A DNA stretch of 64,000 bases from an uncultured Pyrinomonadaceae bacterium. Its GTDB lineage: Bacteria > Acidobacteriota > Blastocatellia > Pyrinomonadales > Pyrinomonadaceae. Location of the stretch: positions 97,338 to 161,337 of the forward strand of contig CAXTPS010000006.1 of assembly GCA_964246305.1 (NCBI GenBank), written 5' to 3'. The translations under genes and the position numbers were made by a program. This document shows, piece after piece, positions 3,135-63,980 of the stretch; within the stretch, counting starts at the first letter, position 1, and every line of letters starts with the position of its first letter. Below the pieces are notes generated by a model. It ran no database searches. It was given only the letters and a program-made list of their open reading frames with translations, and was not told the DNA's origin.

Positions 3135-3578
3135 ATGGCAGACAAAAGCAGACAGGCAAAAGACGAAGCGCGCGGCAAGCCTTCCGTAGAAGCCCCGCGA
3201 GCTGTGCAGGAGTCGCACGGCTACCGCGAGCGCGTGTTTGAGATTGTGCGCCTCATCCCTTCCGGGCGCGTGATGACTTACGGGCAGCTCGCGGACATCC
3301 TGGGCGAAGGCTACACGCCGCGCACGGTCGGCTTTGTGATGCACGCGGCTGACGAAGAGACGACTCCGTGGCAGCGCGTCATCAACTCGCAGGGTGCGTG
3401 CTCGACAGGGCGCGTCATCCTTCCGCCCGACAAACAGCAGCGCATGCTCGAAGCCGAAGGCGTCAAGTTCGACGCACGCGCACGCTGCGACCTGCGACAA
3501 TATCGCTGGTCGCCCGACGAAGACGAAAAGCAGGACGGGAGGCAGGATGATGAACAGCCGAGCCTCTTCAGCGATTAA
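3135..3578 (+). CDS. MGMT-family DNA-binding domain protein (alkyltransferase-like)
   Basis: VFEIVRLIPSGRVMTYGQLADILG....TPRTVGFVMH...PWQRVINSQG resembles the 6-O-methylguanine DNA methyltransferase DNA-binding domain, but I see no PCHR active-site motif. The start is uncertain; the ORF is open from 3009 and there is an ATG at 3135. Confidence 0.7.
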   Translation: MADKSRQAKDEARGKPSVEAPRAVQESHGYRERVFEIVRLIPSGRVMTYGQLADILGEGYTPRTVGFVMHAADEETTPWQRVINSQGACSTGRVILPPDKQQRMLEAEGVKFDARARCDLRQYRWSPDEDEKQDGRQDDEQPSLFSD

Positions 3579-3590: not shown

Positions 3591-3690
3591 TGGTCTTGGG
3601 GCTTTGGTCTTTGATGTTTGACTCAAGTTGAGCTTCATCGCTCAAGGCCGGAGTCGCGTGCAAAGCACAAAGACCAAAGCCAAAGACCAA
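3591..3690 (-). repeat. family-A intergenic hairpin element (CTTTGG-word arms + conserved core), copy A1
   Basis: The reverse complement reads ttggtctttggctttggtctttgtgctttgcacgcgactc...acatcaaagaccaaagcc. It shares the CTTTGCACGCGACTC left junction and the ACA(C)ATCAAAGA right junction with the other copies. Confidence 0.85.
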
Positions 3691-4724: not shown

Positions 4725-6407
4725 ATGCACTCACTCTATCACGCTCTGCTCGCACAGCACCCGCGCCAGCTAACTTCTGTGCGCTGTGCCGAGCAGACTA
4801 TTGCCCAGCTTCATCGTTATTTCGAGGACGTAGTGCTTGAGAACAATCTGGCCGCGCTCGTCATCGAGAGCCTGCCTTTGATGAAGGAGCGTTCGCTGCG
4901 AGACCTTGCGCGCGTGCGCGAGGTCGGGCGGTCTGCGCATCGCGCCTTCTTTTTCGTTTCGCACGAAGATGCTCTGGGCGGTCTGCCGCTGCGGATGAGC
5001 GAACAGGATCGCGAGCCTATCCTTTTGAAGCGCACAGAGCACGAGCAGACGGACGAGCGTTTCGTCGTCATCGCGGACTCGCGCTTCTCTGCCCTGCTGG
5101 CTTCCGTGCGCGGCACGGACGAAGACGGCGGAGGCGACGAGGTTATCTGGTCGTTCGAGCCGGACATAGTTTATTCCGCGCTCGAATATCTGATGGCGCG
5201 CGTCAACGCCGAGCGATCTTTTCAGGCGAACGTCTTTACTGCGGCGGTCAAATCTTCGATGCCGAAGGCGACCTCGCTTCAGCTCACGGTCTCTGTCACG
5301 ACCAAGCTCGCGCGGCTCTTGCAGGAACAGGCCGGGCGTGAGATAGCGATCAACCGCATCGCCAACGCGATTCGTAATTCGCTTGAGCTTGAACAGCTTC
5401 TGCAAACGACCGTCAACGAAGTCGGGCGCGCGCTCAATGCACAGCACTGCGCGCTACGGGTCGAAGGCGAGGCCGGAAGCGAGCCTTTGAGCAACTTTTA
5501 TTTTCGTGACGGAGTGGATAGCGATAAAGCAGAGGACACGGAACTCAAGGGCGACCTTGACGCCTACAGCGTGCGGCTGGCACAGCGCCTCAACAATTAT
5601 GTGCTGGACGGGAGCGGCAGCGCAGACCCGCACGCGCAGAGCATACGCCCGCTCGCCGCTGTCTCGCTTATTTACAAGCAACATTCTATGGGCACGCTGC
5701 TCGTGCGCTCGGATAACCCGGAGCGCATCTGGCAGGAGAATGAAGTCCTGTTGTTACGCACGGTCGCAGATCAGGTGACCATCGCGGTTAATCACGCGCG
5801 CCTCTTCGCGCAGACGCAGCAACAGGCTCTGACAGATGTCCTGACGGGCTGCGTCAACCGCCGCTCGTTTGAAATGGAACTCGAAAAAGCTTTGCAGGTT
5901 GCGACGCGTATGCACCAGCCGCTTTCTCTCATCATGCTCGACGTGGATTACTTCAAGCTCGTCAACGACACACACGGCCACGACGCGGGCGATATGGCGC
6001 TGCGCATGTTCGCAGACGGTTTGCGCGAAGAGCTGCGCGGCGTTGACACGGCGGCGCGTTACGGCGGCGAGGAGTTCGCGGTGATTCTGCCGCAGGCGGA
6101 TGTGGACGGCGCGCTGATCGTGGCAGAACGTTTGCGGGCGCGTCTCGAAAATACGGAAATCCCGCGCGTCGGGTATATCACGGCCTCATTCGGCGTCGCC
6201 ACATTTCCGATGCACGCCAATTCGCGCGACAGTCTTGTCTCAGCCGCAGACCGCGCTCTTTATGATGCCAAGAACTCCGGGCGCAACCTCGTGCGCAGCC
6301 CGCAAGTCACTCCGATCACCCTCACGGATGAAATGTTCGAGCTTAACGAAATCTCAGACGACGCGCAGGATAAGCAGGCTGAAGCCTTTCCTCCAATCTT
6401 AGTTTAA
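4725..6407 (+). CDS. diguanylate cyclase with N-terminal DICT-like domain, GAF domain and GGDEF domain
   Basis: The C-terminus has LTGCVNRRSF...DVDYFKLVNDTHGHDAGD...ARYGGEEFAVIL, an intact GGEEF site. The middle region is GAF-like. The N-terminal ~200 aa (FVVIADSRFSALLASV...WSFEPDIV) resemble a DICT domain. Confidence 0.9.
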   Translation: MHSLYHALLAQHPRQLTSVRCAEQTIAQLHRYFEDVVLENNLAALVIESLPLMKERSLRDLARVREVGRSAHRAFFFVSHEDALGGLPLRMSEQDREPILLKRTEHEQTDERFVVIADSRFSALLASVRGTDEDGGGDEVIWSFEPDIVYSALEYLMARVNAERSFQANVFTAAVKSSMPKATSLQLTVSVTTKLARLLQEQAGREIAINRIANAIRNSLELEQLLQTTVNEVGRALNAQHCALRVEGEAGSEPLSNFYFRDGVDSDKAEDTELKGDLDAYSVRLAQRLNNYVLDGSGSADPHAQSIRPLAAVSLIYKQHSMGTLLVRSDNPERIWQENEVLLLRTVADQVTIAVNHARLFAQTQQQALTDVLTGCVNRRSFEMELEKALQVATRMHQPLSLIMLDVDYFKLVNDTHGHDAGDMALRMFADGLREELRGVDTAARYGGEEFAVILPQADVDGALIVAERLRARLENTEIPRVGYITASFGVATFPMHANSRDSLVSAADRALYDAKNSGRNLVRSPQVTPITLTDEMFELNEISDDAQDKQAEAFPPILV

Positions 6408-6427
6408 ATTCCCCTCAGACACACACC

Positions 6428-6539
6428 AAAAAGCAGAAGGTAAAAGTAAAAAGGCAAAAATGCGGCGGCAGCGGATTTTTTATAAAACGCTTTTGTCTGC
6501 CCTTTCATCTTTTTACTTTTTTTACTTTTACCTTCTTTT
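6428..6539. repeat. intergenic long hairpin built from AAAGTAAAAGG / CTTTTAC words
   Basis: The left arm is aaaaagcagaaggtaaaagtaaaaaggcaaaaatg. The right arm is cctttcatctttttactttttttacttttaccttctttt. Confidence 0.8.
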
Positions 6540-8875: not shown

Positions 8876-10717
8876 ATGTCAACTACGGCCAAACAATTTC
8901 ATGAAGAAGAAGCCATCGGCAAGACGTATGACTTTCGCATCGCGCGCCGCTTGCTCCGTTATCTAAAGCCTTACAAATACGCTCTCATTCCCGCGCTCTT
9001 CCTGACGCTGGTGCAGGTCGTGCTCGGCATCTTGCAGCCGAAGTTCACGGAGTACGCGATTGACTGGTACATCATCCCGCGCAAGCTGGACGGATTGAAT
9101 CTCTTCGTGCTCGTCTATCTCGGCGTCTGGTTTTTGAGATTCGCTTTCTCTTACATACAGGAGATTCTGCTCAACACCGTCGGCCAGCGCGTGATGTACG
9201 ACTTGCGCAGCGAGCTTTACGACAAGCTGCAACATCAGGAGGTCGCGTACTACGACCGCAACCCGGTCGGGCGCATTATGACGCGCCTGACTTCGGATGT
9301 GGACGCGCTGAACGAGTTGTTCACGTCGGGCGTGATTGATGTGCTCGGCGATGTCGTGATGATCTTCGCCATCATCGTCGTGATGCTTTTGATGAGCTGG
9401 CAGCTCACACTGGTGACGCTCATCACAGTGCCGCTCCTGTTTGCCGCGACGACGTGGTTTCGCAAGCACGCGAGGCGCGGTTATGACCGCGTGCGAACGC
9501 GCATCGCGCGCCTCAACGCGTTCCTGCAGGAACATATCTCAGGCGCGCAGACCGTACAGATTTTCAATGCCGAGGAGAAATCGCGCAGGCAGTTTCATGA
9601 AATCAACGACGACCATCGCAACGCCAATATCGAAACTATCTTTTATTACTCCGTCTTTTTCCCGCTCGTTGATTTAATCGGCGCGGTCGGCATCTCGCTC
9701 ATTATCTGGTACGGCGGCTGGCGCGTGATGCACAACACGGCTGCGAGCATGGTGCTGACGCTCGGCGCGCTCGTCGCTTTCATACAATATTCACAACTTC
9801 TCTTTCAGCCGATACGCGACATCTCGGACAAGTACAATGTGCTGCAAGCGGCGGTCGTGGCCTCTTATCGCATCTTCAAAACTTTAGACATGCCCGTCGC
9901 CATCACGACGCCGGAGAATCCGAAGAAGCGCGGGCGCGCGTCCGGACTCATAGAGTTTGAGAACGTCTGGTTCGCTTACAAGGATGAAGACTGGGTGCTC
10001 AAGGACGTGTCGTTCAGGGTCGAGCCGGGGCAGTCCGTCGCGCTCGTCGGCCACACGGGTTCGGGCAAGACTACGATCACGAATCTCTTGATGCGTTTTT
10101 ATGATGTGCAGCAGGGGCGCGTACTGCTTGACGGAGTGGACGTGCGCGATTGGGACTTGCAAACACTGCGCGAAAACTTCGCGGTCGTTCTTCAAGACGT
10201 GTTTCTCTTCAGCGGCACGGTTGAGAGCAACATACGCCTCGGTCGTGAGAGTATCACGCCGGAGCGCGTCGAGTGGGCTGCGGGCGAAGTTCGGGCAGAC
10301 CGCTTTATCAAACGATTGCAAGACGGCTACGCGTCGGAAGTTAAAGAGCGCGGCGCGGGATTGTCGGTCGGACAGAAACAGCTCATCTCGTTTGCACGCG
10401 CGCTCGCCTTCGACCCAGCCCTGCTCGTCCTTGATGAAGCGACCAGCTCGATTGATACAGAGACCGAACAGCTCATTCAACAGGCCATCGAACGCGTGAT
10501 GATGGGACGCACCTCAATCGTCGTCGCACATCGCCTCTCCACGATTCAACGCGCAGACCGCATCATCGTCCTTCACCACGGCAAGATACGCGAACAGGGC
10601 ACGCATCAGGAGCTGCTCATGCTGCGCGGCCTCTACTGGAAACTCTACCGCCTGCAATACTCTGACGACTCAAGCGACATACACATGACGGACGAGCCGG
10701 TCAGCGAGCGGTTGTAA
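8876..10717 (+). CDS. ABC exporter, fused permease/ATPase subunit (heterodimer partner 2)
   Basis: Walker [10 protein letters not shown], signature LSVGQKQL, Walker [10 protein letters not shown] and H-loop VAHRLST. Confidence 0.9.
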
Positions 10718-10728: not shown

Positions 10729-10833
10729 TGGACTTTGGTCTTGGTGCTTTGGTCTTTGCACGTGACTCAAGCTTGTGTTTCAAAATTCAAGCTGAGCAAC
10801 ACATCAAAACCCAAAGTCCAAAGACCAAAGCCC
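10729..10833 (+). repeat. family-A intergenic hairpin element, copy A2
   Basis: tggactttggtcttggtgctttggtctttgcacgtgactcaagcttg...caacacatcaaaacccaaagtccaaagaccaaagccc lies between convergent genes. Confidence 0.85.
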
Positions 10834-10845: not shown

Positions 10846-12096
10846 TTACTTCGTTGCTGGCAGGTCGAACTTTTTCTCGTCAACGGGTGCGTTGATTTTT
10901 ATCTCTGTGAACTTGCGCGTCCAGCCGACCCACGGGTCAACGTAGGATTGGCGCACGGTGAAGGGCATCTTGACGCCGTCAACGTCCCGGTAATCTTCGT
11001 AGTCCGTCTGTTCGGGAATCCATCCGATCATAGAATCTTCGAGCGTGATCGAGCGCAGCAGGAGGCCGGTTTGCGTGTCGAAGTAATACCGCTCGATGTG
11101 CGTGGGCGCAATCCTCGCCATGAGCACGTAGGCTTCGCGGTCGCCGATCTTATCTTTGCCCGTGACGCGCATCTCTTTCGACAGCTCTTTGAGCTTGAGC
11201 ATCCAGAAAAAGTCCGCGGTGTGTTTCATCTGCTCAAGGTCTGCGCCGGTCAGCTCGCGCTGCCCGCGCGGTGACTTCATCCACGCGGTCGTGCCGTTGT
11301 AGCCGCGCGAGATGACGGCCTGCGGCGTCGTCATCATAATCGCAAACTTGTTCGGAGCTTCCTGAGAAATCTCAAAAGGCATGCTTGAGCCATTTGAAGA
11401 AGCGATTTGCGATCCCTTCATCACGCGCGTTTTCGCTTTCTCAATCGCCGCGCGGCCTCCGAGAGCCTGCCAGTATTTATCTATCAACTGCTCCGAGGTC
11501 AGCGAAGTTGCGGCAGGCTTTTCATTCTTTTCACCGCCCGGCCCGCCTTCGGGCGCGGCTTGCGGGAGCGGCGGAGCGTTGACGGTATGCTCCGCGCCCC
11601 TGTGGCACGTGTAGCAAGAGACCCTGTGCGCGCCGCCGAAATTATTTTTGTTGATGTCAAAGACCATCTGAATCATACGCCGCGCGGCCTGCTTCTCAGG
11701 CTTGTCGTCCTTCTCCCATTCCCACTTGTCGCCGCCGCTGTTGACGTGGCAAAAAGCGCAACTGACGCCGAGCGAAGCGCGCATAAAATTCATCACCGTA
11801 AAAAGCTGTGACTCCGGCAAGCCTTTGAGCACCTGTATATTTTTGCGCGTCTGCTCAACCGGCTTGTCTTCCTGCCCGGCGGCCTGCGCTATAAGCAGTT
11901 GTGACGGGACGGCATCAAATTCGGAGAAGTCCAACGGAGCATTCGAGACATCGTGCGCCCGTGTCAATTCAGGCTCTCTTTCTTTAATAGTATTGCCCGC
12001 GCTCGCCCTGTTAATCGCCCAGCTTGTGATTAAAAAGCCGAAAGCAAGCGCAACCACAGCCCACCGGATAAAGTCTTTGACAGCTCTCTTGCTCAT
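10846..12096 (-). CDS. membrane-anchored c-type cytochrome (photosynthetic-reaction-centre cytochrome-c-subunit-like domain, two CxxCH) fused to a LolA-like beta domain
   Basis: It has an N-terminal TM helix. FMRASLGVSCAFCHV and AHRVSCYTCHRG are the two heme-binding motifs in the PF02276-like context. The C-terminal ~220 aa are beta-rich and LolA/DUF-like. Confidence 0.7.
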   Translation of the reverse strand: MSKRAVKDFIRWAVVALAFGFLITSWAINRASAGNTIKEREPELTRAHDVSNAPLDFSEFDAVPSQLLIAQAAGQEDKPVEQTRKNIQVLKGLPESQLFTVMNFMRASLGVSCAFCHVNSGGDKWEWEKDDKPEKQAARRMIQMVFDINKNNFGGAHRVSCYTCHRGAEHTVNAPPLPQAAPEGGPGGEKNEKPAATSLTSEQLIDKYWQALGGRAAIEKAKTRVMKGSQIASSNGSSMPFEISQEAPNKFAIMMTTPQAVISRGYNGTTAWMKSPRGQRELTGADLEQMKHTADFFWMLKLKELSKEMRVTGKDKIGDREAYVLMARIAPTHIERYYFDTQTGLLLRSITLEDSMIGWIPEQTDYEDYRDVDGVKMPFTVRQSYVDPWVGWTRKFTEIKINAPVDEKKFDLPATK

Positions 12097-12154
12097 AACA
12101 GACAGTCTCCTCTTCTATTTTTCAAGCTGAATAAAATGGGACGAGATTTATGAC

Positions 12155-12261
12155 TGGACTTTGTGCTTTGGACTTTGTGCTTTGCACGCGATTCAAACTT
12201 GAATACGTAAGGTTCGAGTCGGGCAACACAATCAAAGACCAAAGCACAAAGTCCAAAGTCC
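12155..12261 (+). repeat. family-A intergenic hairpin element, copy A3
   Basis: tggactttgtgctttggactttgtgctttgcacgcgattcaaacttgaat...caacacaatcaaagaccaaagcacaaagtccaaagtcc. Confidence 0.85.
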
Positions 12262-12282
12262 TACCTTTTGCATTTTACATTT

Positions 12283-13605
12283 TTAATTTTGCGTCCCACG
12301 CATCTTCATCGGCACGAGGCTTTCCAGCGAGCGATAGATTTGCAGGTACAATTGCGTCTCTTTTGGAATCAGAGTGCGCCATGCCGTGCCGCCGCGATTG
12401 AGATAGGAGGGGAGACGCGCAGGGTTGGAATTGTAACCGGCCGCCAACAGCTCGGCTTGTGTCGCAGTCTTCGAGCTGAGCGCGTAGATAACATCTTCGT
12501 TGCCCGCCAGATCGTTCCAGGTGTCCTGCATGTAAAGCAGCATCGCTTCGAGTGCGTTGCCGTGATTACGCATGCCCGCGACGAAATCAGGATTGAGTCC
12601 GACGCCGGGATGCTGGGTTCTGATCATCCGGTACGTGGCGGGAATCATCTGCACCATGCCGCCCGCTCCGGCTGAGCTGACCGAGTAGTGATAAGTGTCG
12701 AGTTCGTTCAAAGAATAGAGCGCGAAAATCTCTTCGTACAGCGCGATGCGATTCTCGCGGCGATAGCGGTCCTGATCCGTATGCTCGACGACGCACAGGC
12801 GTTCCGCGACATTCAGAATCTCCGGCTCGATCTTGACGCCGCTGAGCAGTAAACGCTTCGCCGCCAGATCAATCATCGTCCGCACGTAAGCTTGGCCGGC
12901 CTTGACCACATCGGGCGAGAGCAGCGACGGGTGCGCGGAAGTGTAATAAGCCATCTCAAGGAATCTTCCGTTGCGCTCAATCGGATATTGCACAACGAGC
13001 GGAGCAAGGCTGCGTCCCGCGCTATCGAAAATAGTGACGGCGGTGTTCACGCCGTTGGCTCGTATGACGCGGAGGCTGACAAGGCTTCCTTCCGAAGTGG
13101 TGATGTTCGCTTCCGCTCCCTTCTGTAGAAAGAGGACTTTCGGCAGCGTAATGAAGTGAATCTTTGACGCGCTCGTATCGAGAGCCGCGATGGTGACGAA
13201 ATCTATTGAGGGCGAAGACGGCGAAGCAGGTAACGCAGTCGGTGCGGACGATGGCAAAGGAGCCATGAGCACGGTCGGCACGGGTCGCGTCTTCAACAAT
13301 CGCTCGGCCTCTGTGATGCGCGAGCGGATTTTCTCAATCCCAAGCGAGCGCGCGGTCTGTGCGATGGCGGCATTATTTGCCGGTGTCAGCGGAGACGGGT
13401 CGGGCTTTGGCAAGACGCTGGACGGCGGAACCGTCGCGGGCGGCTGAACGACGGGCGCGGGTTTCATCGCGCCCGTTTGCGGAGCGATAGTCACAGTGCG
13501 AGGCCGCGTCTGCGTCGAAGAGCCGGGCGTATTGGTGGACTGAGCCTGCGCGGACAGAGCCGCCAACGAAATTAGCAGAAGCGAAGGCATCGGGCGTCTT
13601 TTCAT
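12283..13605 (-). CDS. secreted lytic transglycosylase-domain protein with Pro-rich linker
   Basis: The signal peptide MKRRPMPSLLLISLAALSAQAQ starts at the ATG at 13605. The C-terminal region SAGAGGMVQMIPATYRMI...GNALEAMLLYMQD is SLT-like. Confidence 0.7.
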   Translation of the reverse strand: MKRRPMPSLLLISLAALSAQAQSTNTPGSSTQTRPRTVTIAPQTGAMKPAPVVQPPATVPPSSVLPKPDPSPLTPANNAAIAQTARSLGIEKIRSRITEAERLLKTRPVPTVLMAPLPSSAPTALPASPSSPSIDFVTIAALDTSASKIHFITLPKVLFLQKGAEANITTSEGSLVSLRVIRANGVNTAVTIFDSAGRSLAPLVVQYPIERNGRFLEMAYYTSAHPSLLSPDVVKAGQAYVRTMIDLAAKRLLLSGVKIEPEILNVAERLCVVEHTDQDRYRRENRIALYEEIFALYSLNELDTYHYSVSSAGAGGMVQMIPATYRMIRTQHPGVGLNPDFVAGMRNHGNALEAMLLYMQDTWNDLAGNEDVIYALSSKTATQAELLAAGYNSNPARLPSYLNRGGTAWRTLIPKETQLYLQIYRSLESLVPMKMRGTQN

Positions 13606-14533: not shown

Positions 14534-14636
14534 TTTCTTATTAGCGCCTCCTCGCGCCGCACATATGACGCCCGAGCGCAAAGAGTTTGCAGATTTTTGA
14601 GTGTGGCTAACCACAGTGCGCCTGCGGGCGGGAACA

Positions 14637-14786
14637 GTTAGCAGTTGGCAGTTGGCAGTGAGGAAGAGTTGGCAGTTGGCAGATAAAAACAGAAAGCGGT
14701 TAGCAGTAACTCGAATTACTGCCAACCACTTTATCTTTTGTTCTTTACTTCTGCTGTGTCTTGACTGCTAACTGCCAACTGCCAAC
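14637..14786. repeat. intergenic composite hairpin built from TTGGCAG / CTGCCAA words
   Basis: The left arm is gttagcagttggcagttggcag...gttggcagttggcag. The inner hairpin is ggttagcagtaactcgaattactgccaacc. The right arm is ctgctaactgccaactgccaac. Confidence 0.85.
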
Positions 14787-14792
14787 TATCTC

Positions 14793-17785: not shown

Positions 17786-17826
17786 AAGCCGAAGAGACGT
17801 TTCAAACACAATCTCGCTCAAACAAA

Positions 17827-17873
17827 ATAAGCCTGCGCTACTTATGTAAGTAACGCAGGCTTATCTGCTTTTT
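17827..17873 (+). terminator. rho-independent-type terminator after the M23 peptidase gene
   Basis: The hairpin ataagcctgcgctacttatgtaagtaacgcaggcttat is followed by ctgcttttt. Confidence 0.65.
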
Positions 17874-17958: not shown

Positions 17959-19392
17959 TTATCTCTTGATGCTTCTCTGCGACGTTCGGTCATGGTGCGA
18001 AATGGTATTGATGACCGCGTTGGCCGCATCAATCCGTGACTGCTGTTGTCCCGAAATGAAAGTTGAATGCGACTTGATATGCGTGACCACTTCCTTCGGC
18101 TCTGCCGTCGGATTTCGCGCACGCACGAGTGCGACTTCGCCAGCTACCAGCGGCGAGGCCATCGAAGTCCCGGCCCACATTCCATAATGGTTGTACGGCA
18201 CAGGACTGATGATTCGCTCGCCCGGAGCCATCAAGGAGACCCACGAGCCGCGCGTCGAAAAGATCGCCAGACCGTCATCGTTTGTGCTCGCGGCAACCGA
18301 CAGGACGCATCTGCCTCTTCTAATCACTTTGTTTGGATCGGCGTCAACTGCCGCCGGATATTCTCTGATGTTTGCGCCGCTGTTTCCGGCGGCTGCAACG
18401 ACGACCGCGCCGGGCATGAGCGTTCCCGCCGGAGGGTCTTCAGGCCCATCAAGCTCATGATAAAAAACATCGCTGATGAGCTTAGACGCATTCGGCGTGC
18501 TGAGGCTCAGGTTAATCACGTTCGCGCCGTGATCGAGCGCGAACTTGATCGCTTGACCGAGCGTGAAGAAATCGCCGCGACCATCCGTGCCGAGCACGCG
18601 AATCGGCATGATCTTGGCGTCGGGCGCGACCATCGCGATCAAACCGGCGACATGCGTGCCGTGCCCGTAAGGGCCAAGCACAGGGCTGCCCTCTTCGCTC
18701 GGATTATTGTCGTTATCCACGAAGTCGTACATATCTTCGGGGGCCACAAGCCTTCCTGCAAACGCCGGGTGATTCATATCAATGCCGGTATCGAGCACGG
18801 CCACGATGACGGGACGACCCTGCGAGGTCGCGCCGCGCGTCAACTGCTGCGCTTCGTCAAGGCGCATTTTTTGTCTAGCCCATTGCGAGTTGATGGCCTT
18901 GCGTCCGGCCATGATGCTGGCGTAGGAGTCGCCGACGCTCCATGTTGGACGCGCTGCCTCCGGCGCGCCGCCAAAGTAGTTCGCATCCGCAAAGAGTATT
19001 CGCGTGATGTCTGTCGTTAAGGTAGCGACCTTCTGCTCGACGGTCGAGCCGTCTGTGATGCGCAAGAGATAGCTTGTGACCGGCGGCGCGCCCACAGTAA
19101 CCTGCCCGACGGGCACAGGGTCAAGGCCGTACATCGCAGCCACCTGCGCGATGTTATAGCCCGGATTAAGCTGCACGACTACCTGGCCGGGAATGTAAGG
19201 CTGGTTGTTTAAGGCTACGAGTTGGTCTGCCCCCGCTGCGCCCGGCTCCTCCTGCATTCTGGCCGGTGTCCCGACAACTAACCCGACAATCAAAATGAGC
19301 GACAAGAGGGCTGTCAGCCTTCTTAAGCTAAAACCCTTCGGCATAATTTTGGGGAAGCGATTAAGTCTCATAATAATTTGATGTGTTATCAA
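17959..19392 (-). CDS. secreted S8-family (subtilisin-like) serine peptidase
   Basis: The catalytic triad contexts are VAVLDTGID, HGTHVAGLI and GTSMASPLVAG. It has an N-terminal signal/anchor. Alternative starts lie at 19371 and 19344. Confidence 0.85.
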   Translation of the reverse strand: MITHQIIMRLNRFPKIMPKGFSLRRLTALLSLILIVGLVVGTPARMQEEPGAAGADQLVALNNQPYIPGQVVVQLNPGYNIAQVAAMYGLDPVPVGQVTVGAPPVTSYLLRITDGSTVEQKVATLTTDITRILFADANYFGGAPEAARPTWSVGDSYASIMAGRKAINSQWARQKMRLDEAQQLTRGATSQGRPVIVAVLDTGIDMNHPAFAGRLVAPEDMYDFVDNDNNPSEEGSPVLGPYGHGTHVAGLIAMVAPDAKIMPIRVLGTDGRGDFFTLGQAIKFALDHGANVINLSLSTPNASKLISDVFYHELDGPEDPPAGTLMPGAVVVAAAGNSGANIREYPAAVDADPNKVIRRGRCVLSVAASTNDDGLAIFSTRGSWVSLMAPGERIISPVPYNHYGMWAGTSMASPLVAGEVALVRARNPTAEPKEVVTHIKSHSTFISGQQQSRIDAANAVINTISHHDRTSQRSIKR

Positions 19393-19712: not shown

Positions 19713-22565
19713 CTACCAGCGACCGAACAGCACGAATGGAGACCAGAAAAATGGATGCGGCTGCTCCTTCATCAACCTGAGCTGAGCATGGCGCAAGGCC
19801 GTTGCAGCAGACGCTCCGGCGCACAATCTCTGATAAAAATCGGTCATCAGGTTCGCGGTCGCCTCATCATCCACCGTCCAGAGGCTCATCAGTAACGACG
19901 GCGCGCCCGCGGAGAAGAAGCCGCGAGCCAAGCCTATCAACTCGTTGCCGGGAGCGACCGCGCTCATGCCCGTCTCGCACGCGCTCAGCGCGACCAGCTC
20001 GCACCTTTGCAGCTCAAGCGCGTAAGCATCCCGCACGGTCAGCCAGTCATTCGACAGCCGCAGAGATGAGAAGAGCGGATTGTCCGGTCGGAACTGACCA
20101 TGACAGGCAAGGTGTAACACGTCTGCCTGCGCTGCGTTCTCTTTGACGGCAGCGAGCGTGCCGCGCTCGTCAAGCAACACAGTGGCTTCCGGAAAAAGCG
20201 GCGCGAGCGCGAGGACTTCATCTCTCACGCGTGGCGTCTGCTCATCCGGCACTCCGACCAGCACTGCGCGCTGCAGGGAACGCGGCTCGCGCGCGAGGCA
20301 ATGAGTGAGGACGACCGCGCTCGGAGCGTAACAGACTTCGCGCCGCTCTATCACGTAATCAATCCCGTCATGCAACGCATGAAAAGGAACGTAATGCAGC
20401 GCGCGATGTGGAACGATCACGAGGCGACGTTCCGCGCCGATAAATTCTTCGAGGGGTGCGAGCAGCACATCATAGAGCGCCTGCAAATGATGAAGCGCAC
20501 GCCTGGTCAGATGCGGCAGGTGCTTGCGCATGCGTTCCGCGCCGAAGCGCAGCGTGTCTATTTGAAAACGGAGCTGTTCGAGCTGTGCTTCGACCTCGCG
20601 CTCGCTGCCCAAGTGACGTTTGACGGACACACCTTCGCCCGTCAGGACAAATGCCAGCAGCTCTCCGTCAAGGCTCGTGTATTCGACGAGCGCGGCGTCT
20701 TCTCCGAGCGCGCTTTGAAGCTGCTCTATGTTCAGCGTCTCGACCGAAGCGGAGAGCGCGGGTTGTTCGCCGCGATGCTGCAACTGGCGCGTGATCTCAA
20801 GCGTGCGATGCTCGCGCTCTCTGACTTCCCTTTGCAGCGAGGCCATCTCGTCCGCGCTCTCCGAAGCATCGCTTTTCTGCGCGGGACGGTTGATCTGGCT
20901 ATAAAACCAGTTGAGCTGCTCGCGCAGGTCTTGAAGCTCTGCGATGAGTTCGGCCTCGAAAGCGTCGCGCGGCTGCGGCAGGACTTTGAGCGCGCCGCCG
21001 AGTATATCCACCAGAGCGCGTGAGCGAGCGCGCTCGACAAAGCTCAAAGCCTCAGCCGCGCGATCCGTCTCAACATCCGATAGATAGAGCCGCACCATCT
21101 CGTCGTATGGCACGAGCTTGTCAGAAAAGAAGGACGCGCGAAACTCTTCCGCAGGCAAGGGCGCACGCATGGTCTCGATTAACTCTATCGCGCGCTTGAA
21201 CGCCGCCTCAGCTCTCACGGCATCGCCAACGCCCGCCGCCAGCAGGCCGAGCGAAGTGTGGCAACGCTGCTCGACCTGCGGCTGCGCCTGCTCCTCCGCG
21301 TCATGCAGCGTCGCTTCCAGGATAGCGCGTGCTTCAGCTGTCGAGCCGAGAGCGCGCAATGCGTCGCCGCGCAGCCAGCGCGCCATCAGCAAATTTCTCC
21401 ACACGCCCGCGGCAGAGAGCGGAGCTTCGGCCTCTTCGGCAGCCAGCATCGTCGCCGGATAATTCCCCGAAGCGTGATGAAGCTGAGCCATCGTGAGCGC
21501 GACCATCGCTTCGCCGAGCGCATTGCCTTCGACTGCGTAAAGCCTGCGCGCATCCGTGAGCAGTTGTTGCGCCTGTGTCATCTGCCCCAGCAGGATTGCC
21601 GCGCGCCCGTGATGCGCCAGAGCCAGAGCCTGCTCCGCGCGCATCGACAGTTCTGCAAACATCGGCGTCACGCGCTCGTAAAGCTCTGTCGCTTCTGGAG
21701 CGAGATTCAATTCCAGATAAGCGTCCGCTATCTCCAGCGCGGAGACGGCGGATTCATGCGGCATCTGCATCTCCGCATACTTGCGCCGCGCGCGTTCAAG
21801 ATAATCGAGCGCGCGGTCATAACGCCCCTGAAAGAGCGCAAGGTTGCCCATGCTCGATTCTATTCCCGCCTGCGTCGCCACCATCCCGGCGGCCTCTGCG
21901 CGTTCGAGAGCCTGATCGTAAAGCTGCTCGGCTGAGCGGAAATTATGTTTTAAGGATTGAATATAGGCCAGACAATTATCGAGCGTAGCAAGCTGTTTGT
22001 CGTCGCTCAGAGCCTCAAAGCGCACACGCGCCGCAAGAAAGAAATGCTCCGCTTCATCATAGCGGTCGCGACGCCAGTAAATGTTGCCGATGTTGTGCTC
22101 GATCTTTCCGGCGGCGAGAATATCGTCGTGCGCTTTTAAGACTTCCAGAGCGCGCAGGCCGCACGCGATGGCCTCTTCGTAACGTCCGACGATGGCGAGC
22201 GCGATGAGCTTGGAGACCTGCGTTGAGGCAGCAGTGCCTTCGAGATTTAAAGAGACGAAACGCGCCTCTGCATCATCCAGATGCTCTATGGCGCGTTCCA
22301 TCTGTCCTGCGACCAGAGAGGCCAGCCCCGCGCTCCATGCGGCGCACGCAGCGACCTCCCCTGCTTGTGTGTATCGTGTGAAGGCTTCGAGCGCAGCAGC
22401 CGCCGCAGTCGTGCGCGCGGGGTCTGACGCCCATGAGTCGAGGCAGATGTCTTTGAGCGTGTAAGCCAGCGCGGCGTCGGCCAACAGCGCGTGACTCCGC
22501 AAGAGAGCTTCGCGCTCCGCATCGTCCGACGCGATGAGCAGCGCTGCCAACTCCGCACGTTCCAT
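19713..22565 (-). CDS. TPR-repeat + CHAT-domain protein (caspase-like protease superfamily), cytoplasmic
   Basis: About 500 aa of TPR-like repeats are followed by a coiled region and then a CHAT domain. Both dyad contexts are present: VLHLACHGQF (His) and LVALSACETG (Cys). Confidence 0.9.
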   Translation of the reverse strand: MERAELAALLIASDDAEREALLRSHALLADAALAYTLKDICLDSWASDPARTTAAAAALEAFTRYTQAGEVAACAAWSAGLASLVAGQMERAIEHLDDAEARFVSLNLEGTAASTQVSKLIALAIVGRYEEAIACGLRALEVLKAHDDILAAGKIEHNIGNIYWRRDRYDEAEHFFLAARVRFEALSDDKQLATLDNCLAYIQSLKHNFRSAEQLYDQALERAEAAGMVATQAGIESSMGNLALFQGRYDRALDYLERARRKYAEMQMPHESAVSALEIADAYLELNLAPEATELYERVTPMFAELSMRAEQALALAHHGRAAILLGQMTQAQQLLTDARRLYAVEGNALGEAMVALTMAQLHHASGNYPATMLAAEEAEAPLSAAGVWRNLLMARWLRGDALRALGSTAEARAILEATLHDAEEQAQPQVEQRCHTSLGLLAAGVGDAVRAEAAFKRAIELIETMRAPLPAEEFRASFFSDKLVPYDEMVRLYLSDVETDRAAEALSFVERARSRALVDILGGALKVLPQPRDAFEAELIAELQDLREQLNWFYSQINRPAQKSDASESADEMASLQREVREREHRTLEITRQLQHRGEQPALSASVETLNIEQLQSALGEDAALVEYTSLDGELLAFVLTGEGVSVKRHLGSEREVEAQLEQLRFQIDTLRFGAERMRKHLPHLTRRALHHLQALYDVLLAPLEEFIGAERRLVIVPHRALHYVPFHALHDGIDYVIERREVCYAPSAVVLTHCLAREPRSLQRAVLVGVPDEQTPRVRDEVLALAPLFPEATVLLDERGTLAAVKENAAQADVLHLACHGQFRPDNPLFSSLRLSNDWLTVRDAYALELQRCELVALSACETGMSAVAPGNELIGLARGFFSAGAPSLLMSLWTVDDEATANLMTDFYQRLCAGASAATALRHAQLRLMKEQPHPFFWSPFVLFGRW

Positions 22566-22568: not shown

Positions 22569-23162
22569 CTATGCCTTTAATTCAAATTCGGGGACTTCGA
22601 TCTCTGTGCCGGAGAAATTAATAACGAGAGAATATTTGCCGGAAGGCACACGCGGCAGCGTGAACTCGCAAAGGTCGTTCATCAACGCGCTTTCCTCAAC
22701 GCTCTCGCTACGCAGCTCGACCTGCCCGCTCTCGCATTCGCCTAGCACCTGACCCGAAACCACCCATGCGCCATCGTCCGGCGCAACGCGCAGGTCAAGA
22801 TCATGATCGCCGACGCTGAAGAGAAGCTGGCGCGCGACCGACTGGCCTGAGCGGACGCCGAAGGCCGGAGACAACTGGCGGCTATCAAAGCTCAGGACTG
22901 CCATCACTCGCTGCATGACGGAGGGCTTTTGTTCAGCCGCACGCGGGCGAAATAGATTGAGCGCGTGCGAGATAACATCACGCGGGGCGTCTTCCGCCAG
23001 ATCAGTCCGCATGAGATTGACGAGTTGTTCGAGGCGAGCCACTTGCGCGGCGCAATCCGAACAATCCGCCAGATGTGAGCGCGTCGCTTCGCTCTCTTCG
23101 TGCGTCTGGCGATTCTCGGCCAGATCGGCCAGTTTTTCGAATGGAATGTGTTGAGTCTTCAT
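22569..23162 (-). CDS. putative anti-sigma factor (zf-HC2-like N-terminus, beta-sandwich C-terminus, no TM helix)
   Basis: It has an HLADCSDCAAQVARLEQL motif. It lies between the ECF sigma gene and the CHAT gene, 3 nt from the CHAT start. The start is set at the ATG at 23162. Confidence 0.65.
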   Translation of the reverse strand: MKTQHIPFEKLADLAENRQTHEESEATRSHLADCSDCAAQVARLEQLVNLMRTDLAEDAPRDVISHALNLFRPRAAEQKPSVMQRVMAVLSFDSRQLSPAFGVRSGQSVARQLLFSVGDHDLDLRVAPDDGAWVVSGQVLGECESGQVELRSESVEESALMNDLCEFTLPRVPSGKYSLVINFSGTEIEVPEFELKA

Positions 23163-23260
23163 CTGCCTGCCAACTTTGTTAATTCGGGGGTTATCAAACT
23201 TTTCAAAACCGTCACTCAACACAACAGTGCGTAATTCGTGCCGGGAAATACATCACGGAA

Positions 23261-23827
23261 TCAATTTTCAATCAGACGCAGCAATTTTTGCAAACAACGG
23301 GCGCGGGTCGGGCCGATGCTGCCTTCGGTCGTCCCCAGTGCCTGTGCTATCTCGCCATAACTAAGAGAGTTAGACTGATAAAAGAGCATCTCGATTAATT
23401 TGCGGCAACGCTCATCCATCGAGGCGACCGCGCGGCGCACACCCTCCTGCTCTTCAAGGCGCAGCATCACTTCGTCGGGTAAAGGCGCGTCGTCAGGGAC
23501 TCGCGCGGCCTCGCTCTCATCCCCGTCGTCCACATTATTGAATGAGCCTGCATGACTCTTCTCGCGCGAGATGAATCGCCAGGTCATACGCCGCGCCGTC
23601 GTCACTATCCACGCCTGAATCCGCTCAGGCTGTTCTATCCCGTCAAGCTTTCTGAGCAGCGTGGCAAACACATCCTGAAAGACTTCCGCAGACTGATCTT
23701 CATCAAGCCCCGCGCGGCGTGGAATCGTATAAATCAGCCGCTGGTAACGATTGACCAGAGCTTCCCACGCGGCCTCATCACCCTTGCGACACGCCAGCAC
23801 CAGATTTTCATCGCTGATTGAACTCAT
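23261..23827 (-). CDS. ECF-type RNA polymerase sigma-70 family factor
   Basis: Region 2 is AWEALVNRYQRLIYTIPRR...DVFQDVFATLLR. Region 4 is LSYGEIAQALGTTEGSIGPTRARCLQKL. The start is set at MSSISDENL (23827). Confidence 0.85.
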   Translation of the reverse strand: MSSISDENLVLACRKGDEAAWEALVNRYQRLIYTIPRRAGLDEDQSAEVFQDVFATLLRKLDGIEQPERIQAWIVTTARRMTWRFISREKSHAGSFNNVDDGDESEAARVPDDAPLPDEVMLRLEEQEGVRRAVASMDERCRKLIEMLFYQSNSLSYGEIAQALGTTEGSIGPTRARCLQKLLRLIEN

Positions 23828-23968
23828 CCCGTTTGACGAATAATCATTTTCCTGTGATGAAAGAATAGGATGCACGTTCTTGTTTTGTCTAGCGAATGAA
23901 GACCACAAAGCCTGAATTACTCCTCAATAAAAAAATTCTTAAGCGGCAACGTATTTTTCGCACTGCCC

Positions 23969-34295: not shown

Positions 34296-34379
34296 GTGAT
34301 AGGTAATGGGTGATAAGAGAAGACAGGATTTTTCCTATCACCCATCACTCATCACCTGCTTTTCCTATCACCTATCACC
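34296..34379. repeat. intergenic hairpin built from GGTGATA / TATCACC words (copy 1)
   Basis: gtgataggtaatgggtgataag...cctatcacccatcactcatcacc...cctatcacctatcacc. It overlaps the last codons of the YkgJ-like gene. Confidence 0.8.
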
Positions 34380-36038: not shown

Positions 36039-36186
36039 AGGATAGGCAGGATGAGCAGGATGTAAATAAAGGATGAAAGCAATGCTATTGATAGCATGCT
36101 TTTCATCAACCAATATTTCTCATTAAAGATTTGGAATCTCAAATCTGCTATCTGAAATTCTTATCCTGTCTATCCTGTCCATCCCT
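36039..36186. repeat. intergenic composite hairpin (AGGATAG/CAGGATG arms; inner palindrome; AATCTCAAATC word)
   Basis: The left arm is aggataggcaggatgagcaggatg. The inner hairpin is aaagcaatgctattgatagcatgctttt. The right arm is cttatcctgtctatcctgtccatccct. Confidence 0.75.
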
Positions 36187-37723: not shown

Positions 37724-37824
37724 GTTTAGTTTAGAGAGTTAAGAGTTTAGAGAGTTCGGAGAATTAAGACAAGCTCAACACTTTCCGAATTCTCCAAACT
37801 CTTAACTCTCTAAACTCTCCAAAC
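37724..37824. repeat. intergenic hairpin built from GTTTAGAGAG / CTCTCTAAAC words
   Basis: gtttagtttagagagttaagagtttagagagttcggagaatt...gaattctccaaactcttaactctctaaactctccaaac. Confidence 0.85.
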
Positions 37825-37835
37825 TGTTCGACCGA

Positions 37836-42192: not shown

Positions 42193-42215
42193 GCTTTTTC
42201 AAATTCAAATTTAAT

Positions 42216-42260
42216 GGCGAGGCGGGCTGAAAACTATTTTCAGCCCGCCTCGCCTTTTTG
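42216..42260 (+). terminator. rho-independent terminator of rpsT
   Basis: The perfect stem ggcgaggcgggctgaaaa / ttttcagcccgcctcgcc is followed by a ttttt run. Confidence 0.8.
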
Positions 42261-45448: not shown

Positions 45449-45466
45449 ATAGTTTCTCCGTCAAGA

Positions 45467-45588
45467 GCAAGGATGAAGGCGGAAGGATGAAGGATGAAAA
45501 GAAAGATGTCAACAGCTTGCCTTTCATCCCTCGGATTCTCACACGTGGCTTTTACTTTCATCCTTCCGCCTTCATCCTTCCGCCTTGC
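45467..45588. repeat. hairpin built from GGATGAAGG / CCTTCATCC words; the right arm encodes the folP C-terminus
   Basis: The left arm is gcaaggatgaaggcggaaggatgaaggatgaaaag. The right arm is cttttactttcatccttccgccttcatccttccgccttgc. Codons for KQGGRMKAEG* of FolP lie at 45558-45590. Confidence 0.85.
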
Positions 45589-46424
45589 TTTATGGCATCG
45601 GCCACGCGCACGGTTTCGACCGCCGCACGCACGTCATGCACGCGGACGATGTGCGCGCCGCGCAGGACGGCAGCCGTCACGGTCGCCATCGTTCCGTGCA
45701 GCCGCGCATCCGTGGGCGCGTCATCCAGAATGCGTCCGATGAAAGACTTGCGCGACGTACCGACGAGAATCGGAAAGCCCGAAAAACTTTCTGCGAACTC
45801 GTCGAGCCGCGCGATCAATTCAAGGTTCTGCTCTAAAGTTTTTCCGAAACCGATGCCGGGGTCGAGCGCGATTGCCTCACGCTTGACGCCGCATCTCAAC
45901 GCCATGTTCAGGCTGCGGCGCAGGCTCGCACGCAGCTCGCTAAAAATGTCTGGCGACGGCGGCAGGCGATGCAGCGTGCCGGGCGTGCCCCTCGAATGCA
46001 TCAGGACGAGTCCCGCGCCCGACGCGGCGACCTCATCAGCCACATGAAAATCGAAACGCAGAGCGGAGATGTCATTCACTATCGCTGCTCCGGCCTCAAG
46101 CGCGGCGCGTGCCACGACCGATTTGGTCGTATCAACAGAAATCGGAACCTGAGAATGCTTCGCCAGCCGTTCGATGACGGGAATGATGCGGCTCATCTCT
46201 TCTTCCGCAGTCAAGACCGCGCCGCCGCCCGGACGCGTCGATTCGCCTCCGACATCGATCAAGTCCGCGCCCTCCGCGATCATCTCTTCGGCGCGCCTCA
46301 CAGCTTCGTCCGTGTTCAGGAACTGCCCGCCATCGCTAAAGCTATCGGGCGTCACATTGAGCACGCCCATCACCAGCGTCCGCTCACCAATCACAAGCGT
46401 GCGTCGAGCGAGTTTCCATTCCAT
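45558..46424 (-). CDS. folP: dihydropteroate synthase
   Basis: VMGVLNVTPDSFSDGG...IDVGGESTRPG...ISVDT...NDIS. Confidence 0.9.
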   Translation of the reverse strand: MEWKLARRTLVIGERTLVMGVLNVTPDSFSDGGQFLNTDEAVRRAEEMIAEGADLIDVGGESTRPGGGAVLTAEEEMSRIIPVIERLAKHSQVPISVDTTKSVVARAALEAGAAIVNDISALRFDFHVADEVAASGAGLVLMHSRGTPGTLHRLPPSPDIFSELRASLRRSLNMALRCGVKREAIALDPGIGFGKTLEQNLELIARLDEFAESFSGFPILVGTSRKSFIGRILDDAPTDARLHGTMATVTAAVLRGAHIVRVHDVRAAVETVRVADAIKQGGRMKAEG

Positions 46425-46483
46425 AAAACAATTCTATAGCGATTTTCAGATGCATGCGACTTTTATTGCCGCGAAGAAAGTTT

Positions 46484-46580
46484 CCCGCAAAGGCGCAAAG
46501 ACGCAAAGAAGAAGACCGCAAAGAGCACCCGTCTATCAAGGCTCTGTGGTCTTCCTTTGCGTCTTTGCGCCTTTGCGGGG
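46484..46580. repeat. near-perfect ~40-bp-stem hairpin built from GCAAAG / CTTTGC words (copy 1)
   Basis: cccgcaaaggcgcaaagacgcaaagaagaagaccgcaaagagc...gctctgtggtcttcctttgcgtctttgcgcctttgcgggg. Confidence 0.9.
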
Positions 46581-46647
46581 AATGATTTTAAAAAGCTAAA
46601 AGGGAAGAGGCTTGAATGCCCCTTCCCCTTTTGCCTTTTACCTTCCC

Positions 46648-55863: not shown

Positions 55864-55974
55864 AATTCCTTTGCGCCTCTTTAAGCCTGTTCTTGTTTGC
55901 GCTCTTTGCAGTCAAGTTGCTGTTTTAACCCAAAGGACGCGGGGGTGTCAGACGCAAAGAGACGCAAAGGAATT
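55864..55974. repeat. hairpin built from GCAAAG / CTTTGC words (copy 3)
   Basis: aattcctttgcgcctctttaagcc...gacgcaaagagacgcaaaggaatt. Confidence 0.75.
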
Positions 55975-56853: not shown

Positions 56854-56932
56854 GCTTTTTTTTCATCGAAACTCTTCTCCGCATCGCCTGCATGACATTA
56901 TCAGTTGTGCAGGCGATTGTTATTTTAAAAGC

Positions 56933-57040
56933 TGGTCTTCGTTCTTTGGTCTTTGATGTCTAACTTATCTTGAATCATAAAACTCAAGGTTGAGTCGCGT
57001 GCAAAGCACAAAGAACAAAGACCAAAGCCCTAAGACCAAA
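56933..57040 (-). repeat. family-A intergenic hairpin element, copy A4
   Basis: The reverse complement reads tttggtcttagggctttggtctttgttctttgtgctttgcacgcgactcaaccttgag...gacatcaaagaccaaagaacgaagacca. Confidence 0.85.
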
Positions 57041-61175: not shown

Positions 61176-61234
61176 AGCGAGAAAGCGTGAGAAAGTTGAA
61201 AGACTAGCTCGCGCCTGTCAGTCAGCAACAAAAA

Positions 61235-61284
61235 CTCGGGAGAGTGGAGAAGCAGTTCGGTTCTCTTCTCTCCCGAGTTTTTTT
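61235..61284 (+). terminator. rho-independent terminator of the TonB-dependent receptor gene
   Basis: The stem ctcgggagag...ctctcccgag is followed by ttttttt. Confidence 0.7.
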
Positions 61285-63978: not shown

Positions 63979-63980
63979 AG

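Follow-up and report, generated by a model that had tools for sequence, protein, structure and literature searches.

Family A, a set of oriented intergenic hairpins of about 105 nt, is probably a non-coding, non-autonomous mobile DNA element that is specific to Pyrinomonadaceae-like Acidobacteriota and resembles MITEs and REPINs in its behaviour. Most likely it represents a mobile-element family that is new to description and close to known kinds. The observations behind this reading are the family itself, its structure and phyletic spread, its presence or absence at orthologous sites, one near-identical pair of copies at unrelated loci, and the co-variation of its arms.

Copies, anatomy and spread of Family A

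The DNA analysed was a stretch of 64,000 nt (the window) with a G+C content of 55.9%. Its genes are ordinary chromosomal ones, including ftsH, tilS, holA, lptE, folP, rpsT, phoH-ybeY-corC, ABC exporters, two-component systems and a CarboxypepD_reg/beta-barrel outer-membrane protein. The nearest relatives of the window proteins are found in metagenome-assembled genomes (MAGs) of the Pyrinomonadaceae (Acidobacteriota, Blastocatellia).

Five full copies lie in the window, and are given here with their scores from a covariance model of Family A (24 copies, 85 positions). The copy at 3591-3690 (minus strand; 82.6 bits) is located between a methyltransferase-domain gene (stop 3578) and a YbjQ-family gene (start 3710). 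The focal copy at 10729-10833 (plus; 75.8 bits; RNA hairpin z-score -6.75) lies between the stops of an ABC transporter gene (10717) and a convergent c-type cytochrome gene (10846); the copy at 12155-12261 (plus; 74.5 bits) lies on the upstream side of the cytochrome gene, with the next gene's stop 22 nt away. The remaining two are at 56933-57040 (minus; 90.5 bits), just past the terminator hairpin of an HTH_8 gene, and at 61288-61395 (plus; 91.7 bits), directly past the canonical terminator of a gene encoding a 1275-aa outer-membrane beta-barrel protein. These coordinates and strands, first given in an earlier note on this DNA, were confirmed by sequence and by alignment over about 105 nt. 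The same note recorded a truncated start at 63981-64000. A copy is indeed cut off there by the window end, 3 nt past the stop of a DUF4178 gene; however, the fragment (minus; 9.8 bits; model positions 66-85) is the right arm of a minus copy, as shown by its complete orthologues in L029/L030 (86.4 bits) and L031 (62 bits). The proposed closeness to stop codons applies to four of the window copies (3-22 nt), all copies being intergenic; whereas those at 56933 and 61288 lie at about 80 and 113 nt.

The 23-nt core pattern gave four window matches at <=3 mismatches, against 0.00 expected from shuffles. The covariance model found exactly the five full copies in the window, at 75-92 bits and E-values of 1e-17 to 1e-21. 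The opposite strand of the window copies scored only 36-48 bits, and the two strands were well separated over the window and its relatives (75-95 versus 36-51 bits); therefore Family A is oriented by its core. Three window copies are plus and three minus (the truncated copy counted), and the GC skew has no switch. No relation between orientation and the direction of the flanking genes was found among the collected copies, in agreement with the earlier description. Coding capacity had also been denied to the element, and no credible open reading frame was found in it; the overlapping frames are only antisense or extend over real genes.

The anatomy can be followed along the plus strand of the focal copy. 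The left arm (10730-10758) consists of GGA and the words CTTTGGT CTTGGTG CTTTGGT CTTTG, each complete word being 7 nt long, and it pairs with the right arm (10805-10833; CAAAACC CAAAGTC CAAAGAC CAAAGCC C). Between the arms are the left half of a conserved, asymmetric internal loop (10759-10763; CACGT here, consensus CACGC), an inner hairpin (10764-10798) and the right half of the loop (10799-10804; ACACAT here, consensus AGACA(T)). The inner hairpin has a GACTC stem, a CTTG...CAAG inner stem and an A-rich apical loop, and is kept in length and variable in sequence. The Family A consensus is CTTTGTnCTTTGTTCTTTGCACGCGACTCAAnCTTGAATGnTAAAACTCAAGnTGAGTnAGACAnTCAAAGAACAAAGnACAAAG. The words had been read as hexamers, which is wrong, as the period is 7 nt and the words are heptamers, CTTTGNN on the left and NNCAAAG on the right. 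In the column table, the CTTTG/CAAAG part is nearly invariant and the next two bases vary. The number of words is bounded, with modally three words plus a CTTTGCA word on the left and four on the right. The arms are imperfect inverted repeats of 22-45 nt, 73-100% complementary, made of tandem heptads with no unique terminal sequence.

The length between two fixed points, each two words out from the core, was 84-86 nt in 25 of the 27 first-collected copies; the other two are deletion variants of 65-66 nt. In one of these, L021, the core is only a perfect palindrome, GACTCAAGCTTGAGTC. Both copies in the genome OY969475.1 carry a private right-junction variant, AACAAAGATCAAAG, a subfamily signature of that source. 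The search pattern demanded the left half of the internal loop, so that invariance there among pattern-found copies says little; but this half is also kept in the copies that only synteny or the covariance model brought to light (L029, L031). The right half (columns 63-67), which was outside the pattern, is conserved as well (A in 23/24, A in 24/24, C in 20/24 and A in 21/24). The best conserved single-stranded parts are the left junction and the apical loop (T45, A46-A48). The core was never seen without arms in 275 kb of sequence examined. The unit of Family A is the whole hairpin of about 105 nt, in which the core always comes with arms, at fixed spacing and with modally 4+4 words. Its layout is inverted with respect to the usual one: the asymmetric internal loop is conserved, and the heptad arms change fast and stay complementary.

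Family A extends well beyond the window. After removal of duplicates, 29 distinct copies were collected, drawn from six or more sources. When one genome per species was scanned for the exact pattern, seven copies came from two genomes, the complete Pyrinomonadaceae MAG OY969475.1 (two) and the Acidobacteriota MAG JAFBAJ01 (five). A metagenome scan gave 18 further loci, with several soil metagenomes represented, and the syntenic relatives L026, L029/L030 and L031 added more. The family is thus not, as had been supposed, genome-specific; nor are its copies assembly artefacts. Scans of viral contigs, plasmids and phages gave no matches, and an origin from a phage, plasmid or virus was rejected on the same collections. 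Family A is lineage-wide and chromosomal. A recent burst within a genome was also considered and dropped, as the likeness of copies within one source (0.76) is barely above that between sources (0.73); this small gap fits an old family with saturated variable positions, or constraint, as well as recent bursts.

The inability of the earlier note to assign the family to a described one still holds. The whole window had no Rfam match at gathering thresholds, and the relaxed mode returned only generic long-hairpin microRNA models (16-30 bits versus thresholds of 48-180), which were discarded. Literature searches gave no account of Family A for Acidobacteria, and no known MITE family was identified for it.

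The hairpin and its maintenance

The long imperfect hairpin that had been proposed is formed by all five full copies on either strand, and no shuffled sequence folded as well. The fold z-scores range from -5.3 to -8.0 for RNA and from -3.8 to -7.3 for DNA. With a hand-drawn structure of 31 pairs, 83% of the helix cells are paired, versus 25-50% with the partner shifted one to three columns. The inner-stem columns 34-37/52-55 are 63-96% paired. Per-column covariation is modest (0.127 versus 0.107 in shuffles, matched by 8 of 500); clear covarying pairs are 13-76 (UA 12, GC 6) and 40-50 (AU 6, GC 5, GU 5). In an alignment-free test, the two arms of one copy paired better than mixed arms (-23.2 versus -19.8 kcal/mol; permutation p = 0.00035), and the variable word positions also matched better within copies (3.07 versus 2.52 of 6; p = 0.014). 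The alignment-free test gives stronger support for a maintained hairpin than the per-column covariation. An outer pair that reads GGAC/GTCC versus GGTC/GACC has changed on both sides between the 12155 copy and its L026 orthologue.

This complementarity bears on the possibility that a DNA-binding protein, either nucleoid-associated, a global regulator or of the iteron type, binds the paired heptad arrays. The paired inverted tandem 7-9-mers of Geobacter have been interpreted in this way (PMC2700814), and the nearly invariant CTTTG followed by two variable bases, together with the defined word number, would suit such sites. Complementarity of the arms in each copy would nevertheless be needless for independent sites. 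Moreover, the 7-bp period is out of phase with the DNA helix, no IHF-like consensus was seen by eye, and the many word families that share this architecture and these sites would call for many proteins. Protein sites are therefore considered improbable. Inspection of the internal loop and junction by eye also fitted no kink-turn, loop-E or IHF consensus.

The mismatches in the helix indicate at which level the hairpin is maintained. If selection acted on the RNA of one strand, G:U should be tolerated and A:C avoided. The helix mismatches include 42 G:T and 44 A:C, and therefore the signal is at the DNA level or strand-neutral. The minus-sense RNA folds somewhat better in sum (-769 versus -672 kcal/mol); however, a single functional RNA strand was rejected, since the difference stems only from the fixed junction and G:T is about as frequent as A:C.

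That each copy is a gene for a small RNA, or a cis-regulatory RNA driven by a promoter of its own, is accordingly very unlikely. Such a promoter might be composed of the TTGCAC left junction and the A-rich apical loop as the -10 element, and the strong conservation of these single-stranded parts, as well as the better minus-sense fold, would agree with it. No promoter-like site was called within any copy, though, and the candidate hexamers have a poor spacing of about 19 nt. The right-hand gene neighbours of the copies are also not biased to gene starts (about 10 starts versus about 14 stops). The internal promoter was rejected on these three grounds, and the equal G:U and A:C frequencies and the lack of an Rfam match tell against the RNA gene as a whole.

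Orthologous sites, gene ends and movement

The six window sites were compared with the syntenic contigs of relatives, in which the flanking proteins are 76-90% identical. The 12155 copy has an orthologue of the same orientation in L026, and the 63981 copy also has orthologues, as given above; whereas the copies at 3591, 10729, 56933 and 61288 are absent from the orthologous sites of relatives, so that four of the six window copies are polymorphic for insertion. These sites carry other elements instead. The spacer orthologous to 10729 holds other hairpins in L026, L027 and L028. At the 3591 site, L026 has a ACGCAGAG-word hairpin; at the 56933 site, L029 has a CCACAGAGG-word hairpin and L032 a direct heptamer array; and at the 61288 site, other repeats are found in L031, L029 and L032, and a gene for a REP-associated tyrosine transposase (RAYT) in L036. 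The DUF4178 site has five different elements in eight related genomes: Family A, a GC-rich long palindrome, a CCACAGAT-armed hairpin, GC-rich REP-like palindromes and a TTTGACA-word hairpin. Other sites in relatives include hairpins with GATGTCA, ACGCAGAG, GGTTCAA or CCACAGAGG words, a 21-nt array and a direct heptamer array. Hairpins with other words are also found in the window itself, at 37728-37825, 45466-45589 and 46481-46582, and are closer to the Xanthomonas/Geobacter arrays (see below) than Family A is. One Family A copy (L012/L015) is nested within a TGTCAGT-word hairpin.

No empty site was found at the six window sites across up to eight related genomes, each carrying some hairpin or repeat array. 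Insertion is therefore inseparable from replacement by recombination, and the element ends and a target duplication could not be defined. The gene-end sites keep some hairpin while hairpin families replace one another there.

A further sign of movement is a pair of copies at unrelated loci. Over the 36 nt of its interior, which lie outside the search pattern, the 10729 copy shows 94% identity to the L029 copy at the DUF4178 locus; the latter is the orthologue of the truncated sixth copy of the window. By comparison, the median interior identity is 64% over 378 pairs, and L029 is only 83% identical to its own orthologue in L031. The pair is best explained by a copy from the DUF4178 locus, or by a shared recent source, in the lineage of the window. 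The arms of the two copies differ far more than their interiors, and therefore the arms evolve faster, presumably by slippage.

Another suggestion is that the hairpins are immobile, and arise in place by replication slippage with palindrome-correcting template switching, their likeness being convergent. In some genomes, mutation is known to give rise to heptamer tandem repeats (PMC4692102, PMC4679880), many hairpins of unrelated words occur at the same sites, and the arm words differ even between orthologous copies. Yet the core of 50 nt, with its asymmetric loop and constant length, is met again at unrelated loci of several genomes and so cannot be convergent; the 94% identical interior at two unrelated loci points the same way. 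An origin in place can hardly be credited on this evidence; slippage probably shapes the arms of Family A but does not create the family.

The constant occupancy is relevant to a different alternative, namely that the hairpin is a cis-element of the host, either a bidirectional terminator or an mRNA 3'-end protector, whose copies are alike by selection and not by selfish spread. Across the same sites and genomes, no orthologous site lacks a hairpin or repeat array, though its identity changes. The copies lie 1-30 nt from stop or start codons, and therefore the element is nearly the whole spacer; some separate genes of the same transcription unit. With an A-run to the left in 13/26 copies and a T-run within 14 nt to the right in 16/29, the layout is that of a bidirectional terminator, and Family A is the sole hairpin at the convergent ABC/cytochrome junction. 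Word hairpins are also found within the conserved operons phoH-ybeY-corC and folP-ftsH.

Termination alone, however, does not account for these copies. Those at 61288 and 56933 lie directly past canonical terminators, where they are superfluous, and therefore the element is not simply a terminator. A terminator consensus scan called no copy. Intrinsic terminators have a GC-rich stem-loop with a T-run directly after it; the stem of Family A is long and moderately AT-rich. G:U is not favoured over A:C, and a generic need for hairpins leaves the asymmetric loop, the fixed length and the 94% interior at unrelated loci unexplained. Selection for a host function is thus a real but clearly less probable origin of the family. 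It is also compatible with a mobile element as a secondary role. Family A may plausibly act as a hairpin at the 3' ends of RNAs, whichever way it is oriented, and this would go some way towards explaining the constant occupancy.

The enzyme that might move Family A was sought among transposases. No transposase is present in the 64-kb window. In the relative L036, a 195-aa gene is located in the same spacer that holds the 61288 copy in the window, and it matches the NCBIfam model of the REP-associated tyrosine transposase (97.8 bits, cut-off 80) and Pfam Y1_Tnp. This gene is flanked by inverted GCGGGGACAGGGTCC repeats carrying the GGGGWSAS motif, and two RAYT homologues in other genomes (L037, L038/L039) have the same kind of flanks. 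A link of RAYT to Family A was rejected, as the flanks of the three RAYT loci read, which form one clade, are GC-rich GGGGACAG inverted repeats in place of Family A. These GC-rich repeats are absent from the window. RAYT-type enzymes exist in the lineage and in the same intergenic hot spot, so that hairpin-specific tyrosine transposases are active in this lineage; those read belong to another repeat family.

HUH tyrosine transposases recognise the hairpins of REP and IS200/IS605 elements. In Family A the conservation lies in the internal loop, and from this position a hairpin-recognising enzyme may be proposed. The inverted layout of conservation likewise points to recognition of a folded single strand.

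The flanks were aligned for all copies, and no consistent direct repeat that could be a target-site duplication was found. They tend to TAAAAG on the left and CTTTTA(A) on the right, which is an inverted and not a direct arrangement, and often overlap the TAA stop codon of the neighbouring gene. TA is found at both outer ends in 8 of the 12 copies with readable ends, where it is inseparable from the inverted TAAAAG...CTTTTA motif. Part of this motif is present at two sites in relatives that carry another element, and the motif may be a target preference and not a part of Family A. A direct repeat, CTTTAAGC, occurs just once, at L022.

The mode of movement, the enzyme and the effect on RNA can be inferred as follows. 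The mobile unit would comprise about four CTTTGNN heptads, a single-stranded 'foot' (CACGC/AGACA), the inner stem-loop and about four NNCAAAG heptads. It would spread by copy-and-paste into A/T-rich gene boundaries, by stop codons, at the T-runs of terminators, and within or beside other hairpins. The mover would be a trans-acting enzyme encoded elsewhere in the genome, and most plausibly it would read the folded hairpin with its asymmetric internal loop, not the ends, as HUH transposases do. The heptad arms might then change fast by slippage, with complementarity kept in each copy. Once inserted, the element would be transcribed with its neighbours, and its stable two-way hairpin could serve as a terminator or 3'-end protector. 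Such use of the hairpin would explain why the sites always carry some hairpin.

A bolder extension can be offered only tentatively. Family A and the other word-armed hairpins might be one structure-defined class of mobile cassettes that share one hairpin-recognising machinery, replace one another by cassette exchange at fixed gene-end sites beside stop codons and the T-runs of terminators, have their arms rebuilt or reshuffled by heptad slippage during or after each move, and supply the hairpins of these gene ends. If true, such a class would be a mobile, self-renewing pool of gene-end hairpins, unlike ordinary MITEs or REPs. The wider turnover pattern may matter more than Family A itself, as the turnover of hairpins at occupied gene ends offers a natural system for the question of whether intergenic hairpins persist through a need of the host or through mobile hairpins that target one another.

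Comparison with known repeat families

Much is known of small dispersed repeats in Proteobacteria, Firmicutes and cyanobacteria. The Acidobacteria are a dominant, poorly cultured soil phylum, and the literature searches found no small dispersed repeats described there. The covariance model can be used for counting, for strain typing and for explaining assembly breaks in Pyrinomonadaceae genomes.

The label 'REP/MITE-like' of the earlier note is apt for behaviour, Family A being a dispersed, non-coding, intergenic hairpin that behaves in such a way; but it does not extend to family membership, as Family A lacks the defining features of REPs and neither a duplication nor a parent insertion sequence of the MITE kind was shown. 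On the REP side, the repeats are defined as 20-40 bp palindromes tagged at one end by GTAG or CGTC (PMC3733652). Family A is about 105 nt long, has no GTAG or CGTC at a conserved consensus position, and its stems are not GC-rich. The GGGGWSAS motif was described at acidobacterial 'TIRYT' genes by Di Nocera et al. (PMC3733652), and the RAYT/TIRYT genes examined here are flanked by GGGGWSAS-type inverted repeats as in that report, not by Family A; a REPtron arrangement, with the repeat on the flanks of a single-copy RAYT gene, is thus lacking in the one clade of L036, L037 and L038/L039. What Family A shares with REPs and REPINs is the intergenic hairpin with recognition features as single-stranded bases at the foot of a stem. 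Its total length is also like that of a REPIN (about 100 nt), and its behaviour is alike too (PMC3116915). A REPIN consists of two inverted REPs that form one hairpin, with conserved ends and a variable spacer. The Family A hairpin has two inverted halves and varies in its apical region; its halves are heptad arrays with half a core each and not self-folding REPs. The core may also be read as two copies of a small palindrome, CTCAAGCTTGAG, the variant in L021 having a single one.

On the MITE side, where elements span about 50-800 bp, the size and copy number agree (about 105 nt, non-coding, five copies and one truncated copy in 64 kb, 29 overall), and the heptad arms can be regarded as terminal inverted repeats. 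Classical MITEs have conserved ends and a variable middle; whereas Family A has the reverse, with a conserved near-central loop and variable heptad ends. The MITE-like repeats Correia (Neisseria), ERIC/IRU (enterobacterial) and BOX, RUP and SPRITE (pneumococcal) are, like Family A, non-coding, intergenic and present in many copies in either orientation. Repeats of the Correia/ERIC/BOX type are about 100-200 nt long, form long imperfect hairpins, are co-transcribed with their neighbours and differ in presence or absence among strains (PMC10969869). They also cluster and insert into one another, and BOX has a variable number of internal tandem modules (PMC10969869). In contrast to this type, no target-site duplication, TA or other, could be demonstrated for Family A, and no parent insertion sequence is known for it. 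In a comparison at the level of descriptions, no sequence likeness between Family A and Correia, ERIC, BOX, RUP or SPRITE was noticed.

The third group of relatives is the paired inverted heptamer arrays, for which cyanobacterial STRR heptamers are a looser relative. Family A fits their definition, having period-7 words on both arms, inverted and intergenic. The GGGAATC repeats of Xanthomonas are paired inverted heptamers whose length varies by species while the repeat type is kept at a site (PMC4692102), and the class 1-3 'global regulator sites' of Geobacter metallireducens are paired inverted tandem 7-9-mers (PMC2700814). Like Family A, these arrays are composed of convergent short words with stem-loop potential, and are intergenic and lineage-specific (PMC4692102, PMC2700814). 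The Xanthomonas and Geobacter pairs as described have variable spacing and no conserved asymmetric core; whereas Family A has a core of about 50 nt, with fixed length and word number.

Word-armed hairpins and direct arrays in the window

Besides Family A, the intergenic hairpin repeat of ~105 nt with CTTTGNN heptad arms, the window contains at least six hairpins whose arms consist of short tandem words different from those of Family A (37728-37825, 45466-45589, 46481-46582, 14636-14787, 55864-55974, and 34296-34355). Their arm words are AGTTTAGAG, AAGGATG/AAGGCGG, CGCAAAG (in two cases), CAGTTGG, and a GTGATAG-like word. Several of these hairpins sit within the conserved operons phoH-ybeY-corC and lptE-folP-ftsH. 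The inter-arm distance was exactly 46 nt in three hairpins, including the Family A copy 10729. Heptamer arrays in direct orientation only were also found (1124-1192, 2186-2227, 6427-6459, 12266-12292, and 36115-36184), with words of the AATCTCA, CTTTTAC, CAAAAGG, and TTTTGCA type. The TTTGCATTTTACATTTTTAATTTTGC array to the right of the Family A copy 12155 was found again in L026, a syntenic contig of a relative, where it is located in the loop of a hairpin built of ACGCAGAG words.

Occupation of the orthologous sites in relatives

In every relative examined, each Family A site of the window is occupied by another repeat or hairpin; no empty orthologous site was found among the spacers in L026 (~11228-11305, ~18317-18487), L027 (~9770-9850, ~11210-11340), L029 (~4740-4900, 9141-9473), L031 (~3350-3480), L032 (~4840-4900, ~11975-12140), L033 (~5005-5095), L034 (~4985-5120), and L036 (~4880-4950). 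A CCACAGAGG-armed family occurs at two different sites (L029 and L031), and its inner word arrays differ between them. The L029 spacer 9141-9473, which lies between the genes of an outer-membrane protein and an AdoMet decarboxylase, is occupied by an array of ~300 nt with GAGCAAACGGAACTCCGCTAA-like units of ~21 nt, as is its counterpart in L030; the 110-aa minus-strand gene called across this array is probably spurious. Nesting was also observed in two outside sequences: the Family A copy in L012 (2859-2986) and L015 (235-362) is enclosed by (TGTCAGT)3 and (ACTGACA)3 arms, and its immediate flanks are reversed relative to the usual polarity, T-rich on the left and with an A-run on the right.

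The REP-associated tyrosine transposase (RAYT) genes were located in L036 (1615-2202), L037 (177-770), L038 (2501-3082), and L039 (777-1358), and the L036 gene matches NCBIfam NF047646 with 97.8 bits. These genes are bordered by inverted GCGGGGACAGGGTCC-type repeats with a GGGGWSAS motif. The flanks of the L036 gene are at 1499-1560 and 2213-2315, the right one running on into three tandem units of ~21 nt, and this gene occupies the spacer equivalent to that of the Family A copy 61288. More than 1300 RAYT homologues are present in the protein collection, many of them on contigs of ~1 kb.

Stop codons, terminators and protein genes of note

The TAA stop of the DUF4178 gene, next to the truncated Family A copy at the window end, falls inside the TTAAAG motif at the element end (window 63976-63981, L029 11984-11990, L031 6078-6084). 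The element is absent from L032, where the DUF4178 protein has a different end and the stop is TAG. In many other Family A copies, a fixed distance of 11-16 nt separates the arm from the stop codon of the neighbouring gene. These observations suggest that the element or its target may supply stop codons.

Two protein architectures typical of conflict or signalling systems are also encoded in the window. A TPR-CHAT protein of 950 aa (19713-22565, minus strand) adjoins a sigma-70-region-2 (ECF-like) gene (22569-23908, minus strand), and a WD40 protein of 975 aa (31035-33962, plus strand) carries a caspase (Peptidase_C14) domain at the C-terminus.

Canonical intrinsic terminator hairpins with T-runs are present in the window (61230-61282, 56883-56917, 42213-42257, and 17820-17871), and therefore the genome uses ordinary terminators beside the word-armed hairpins.
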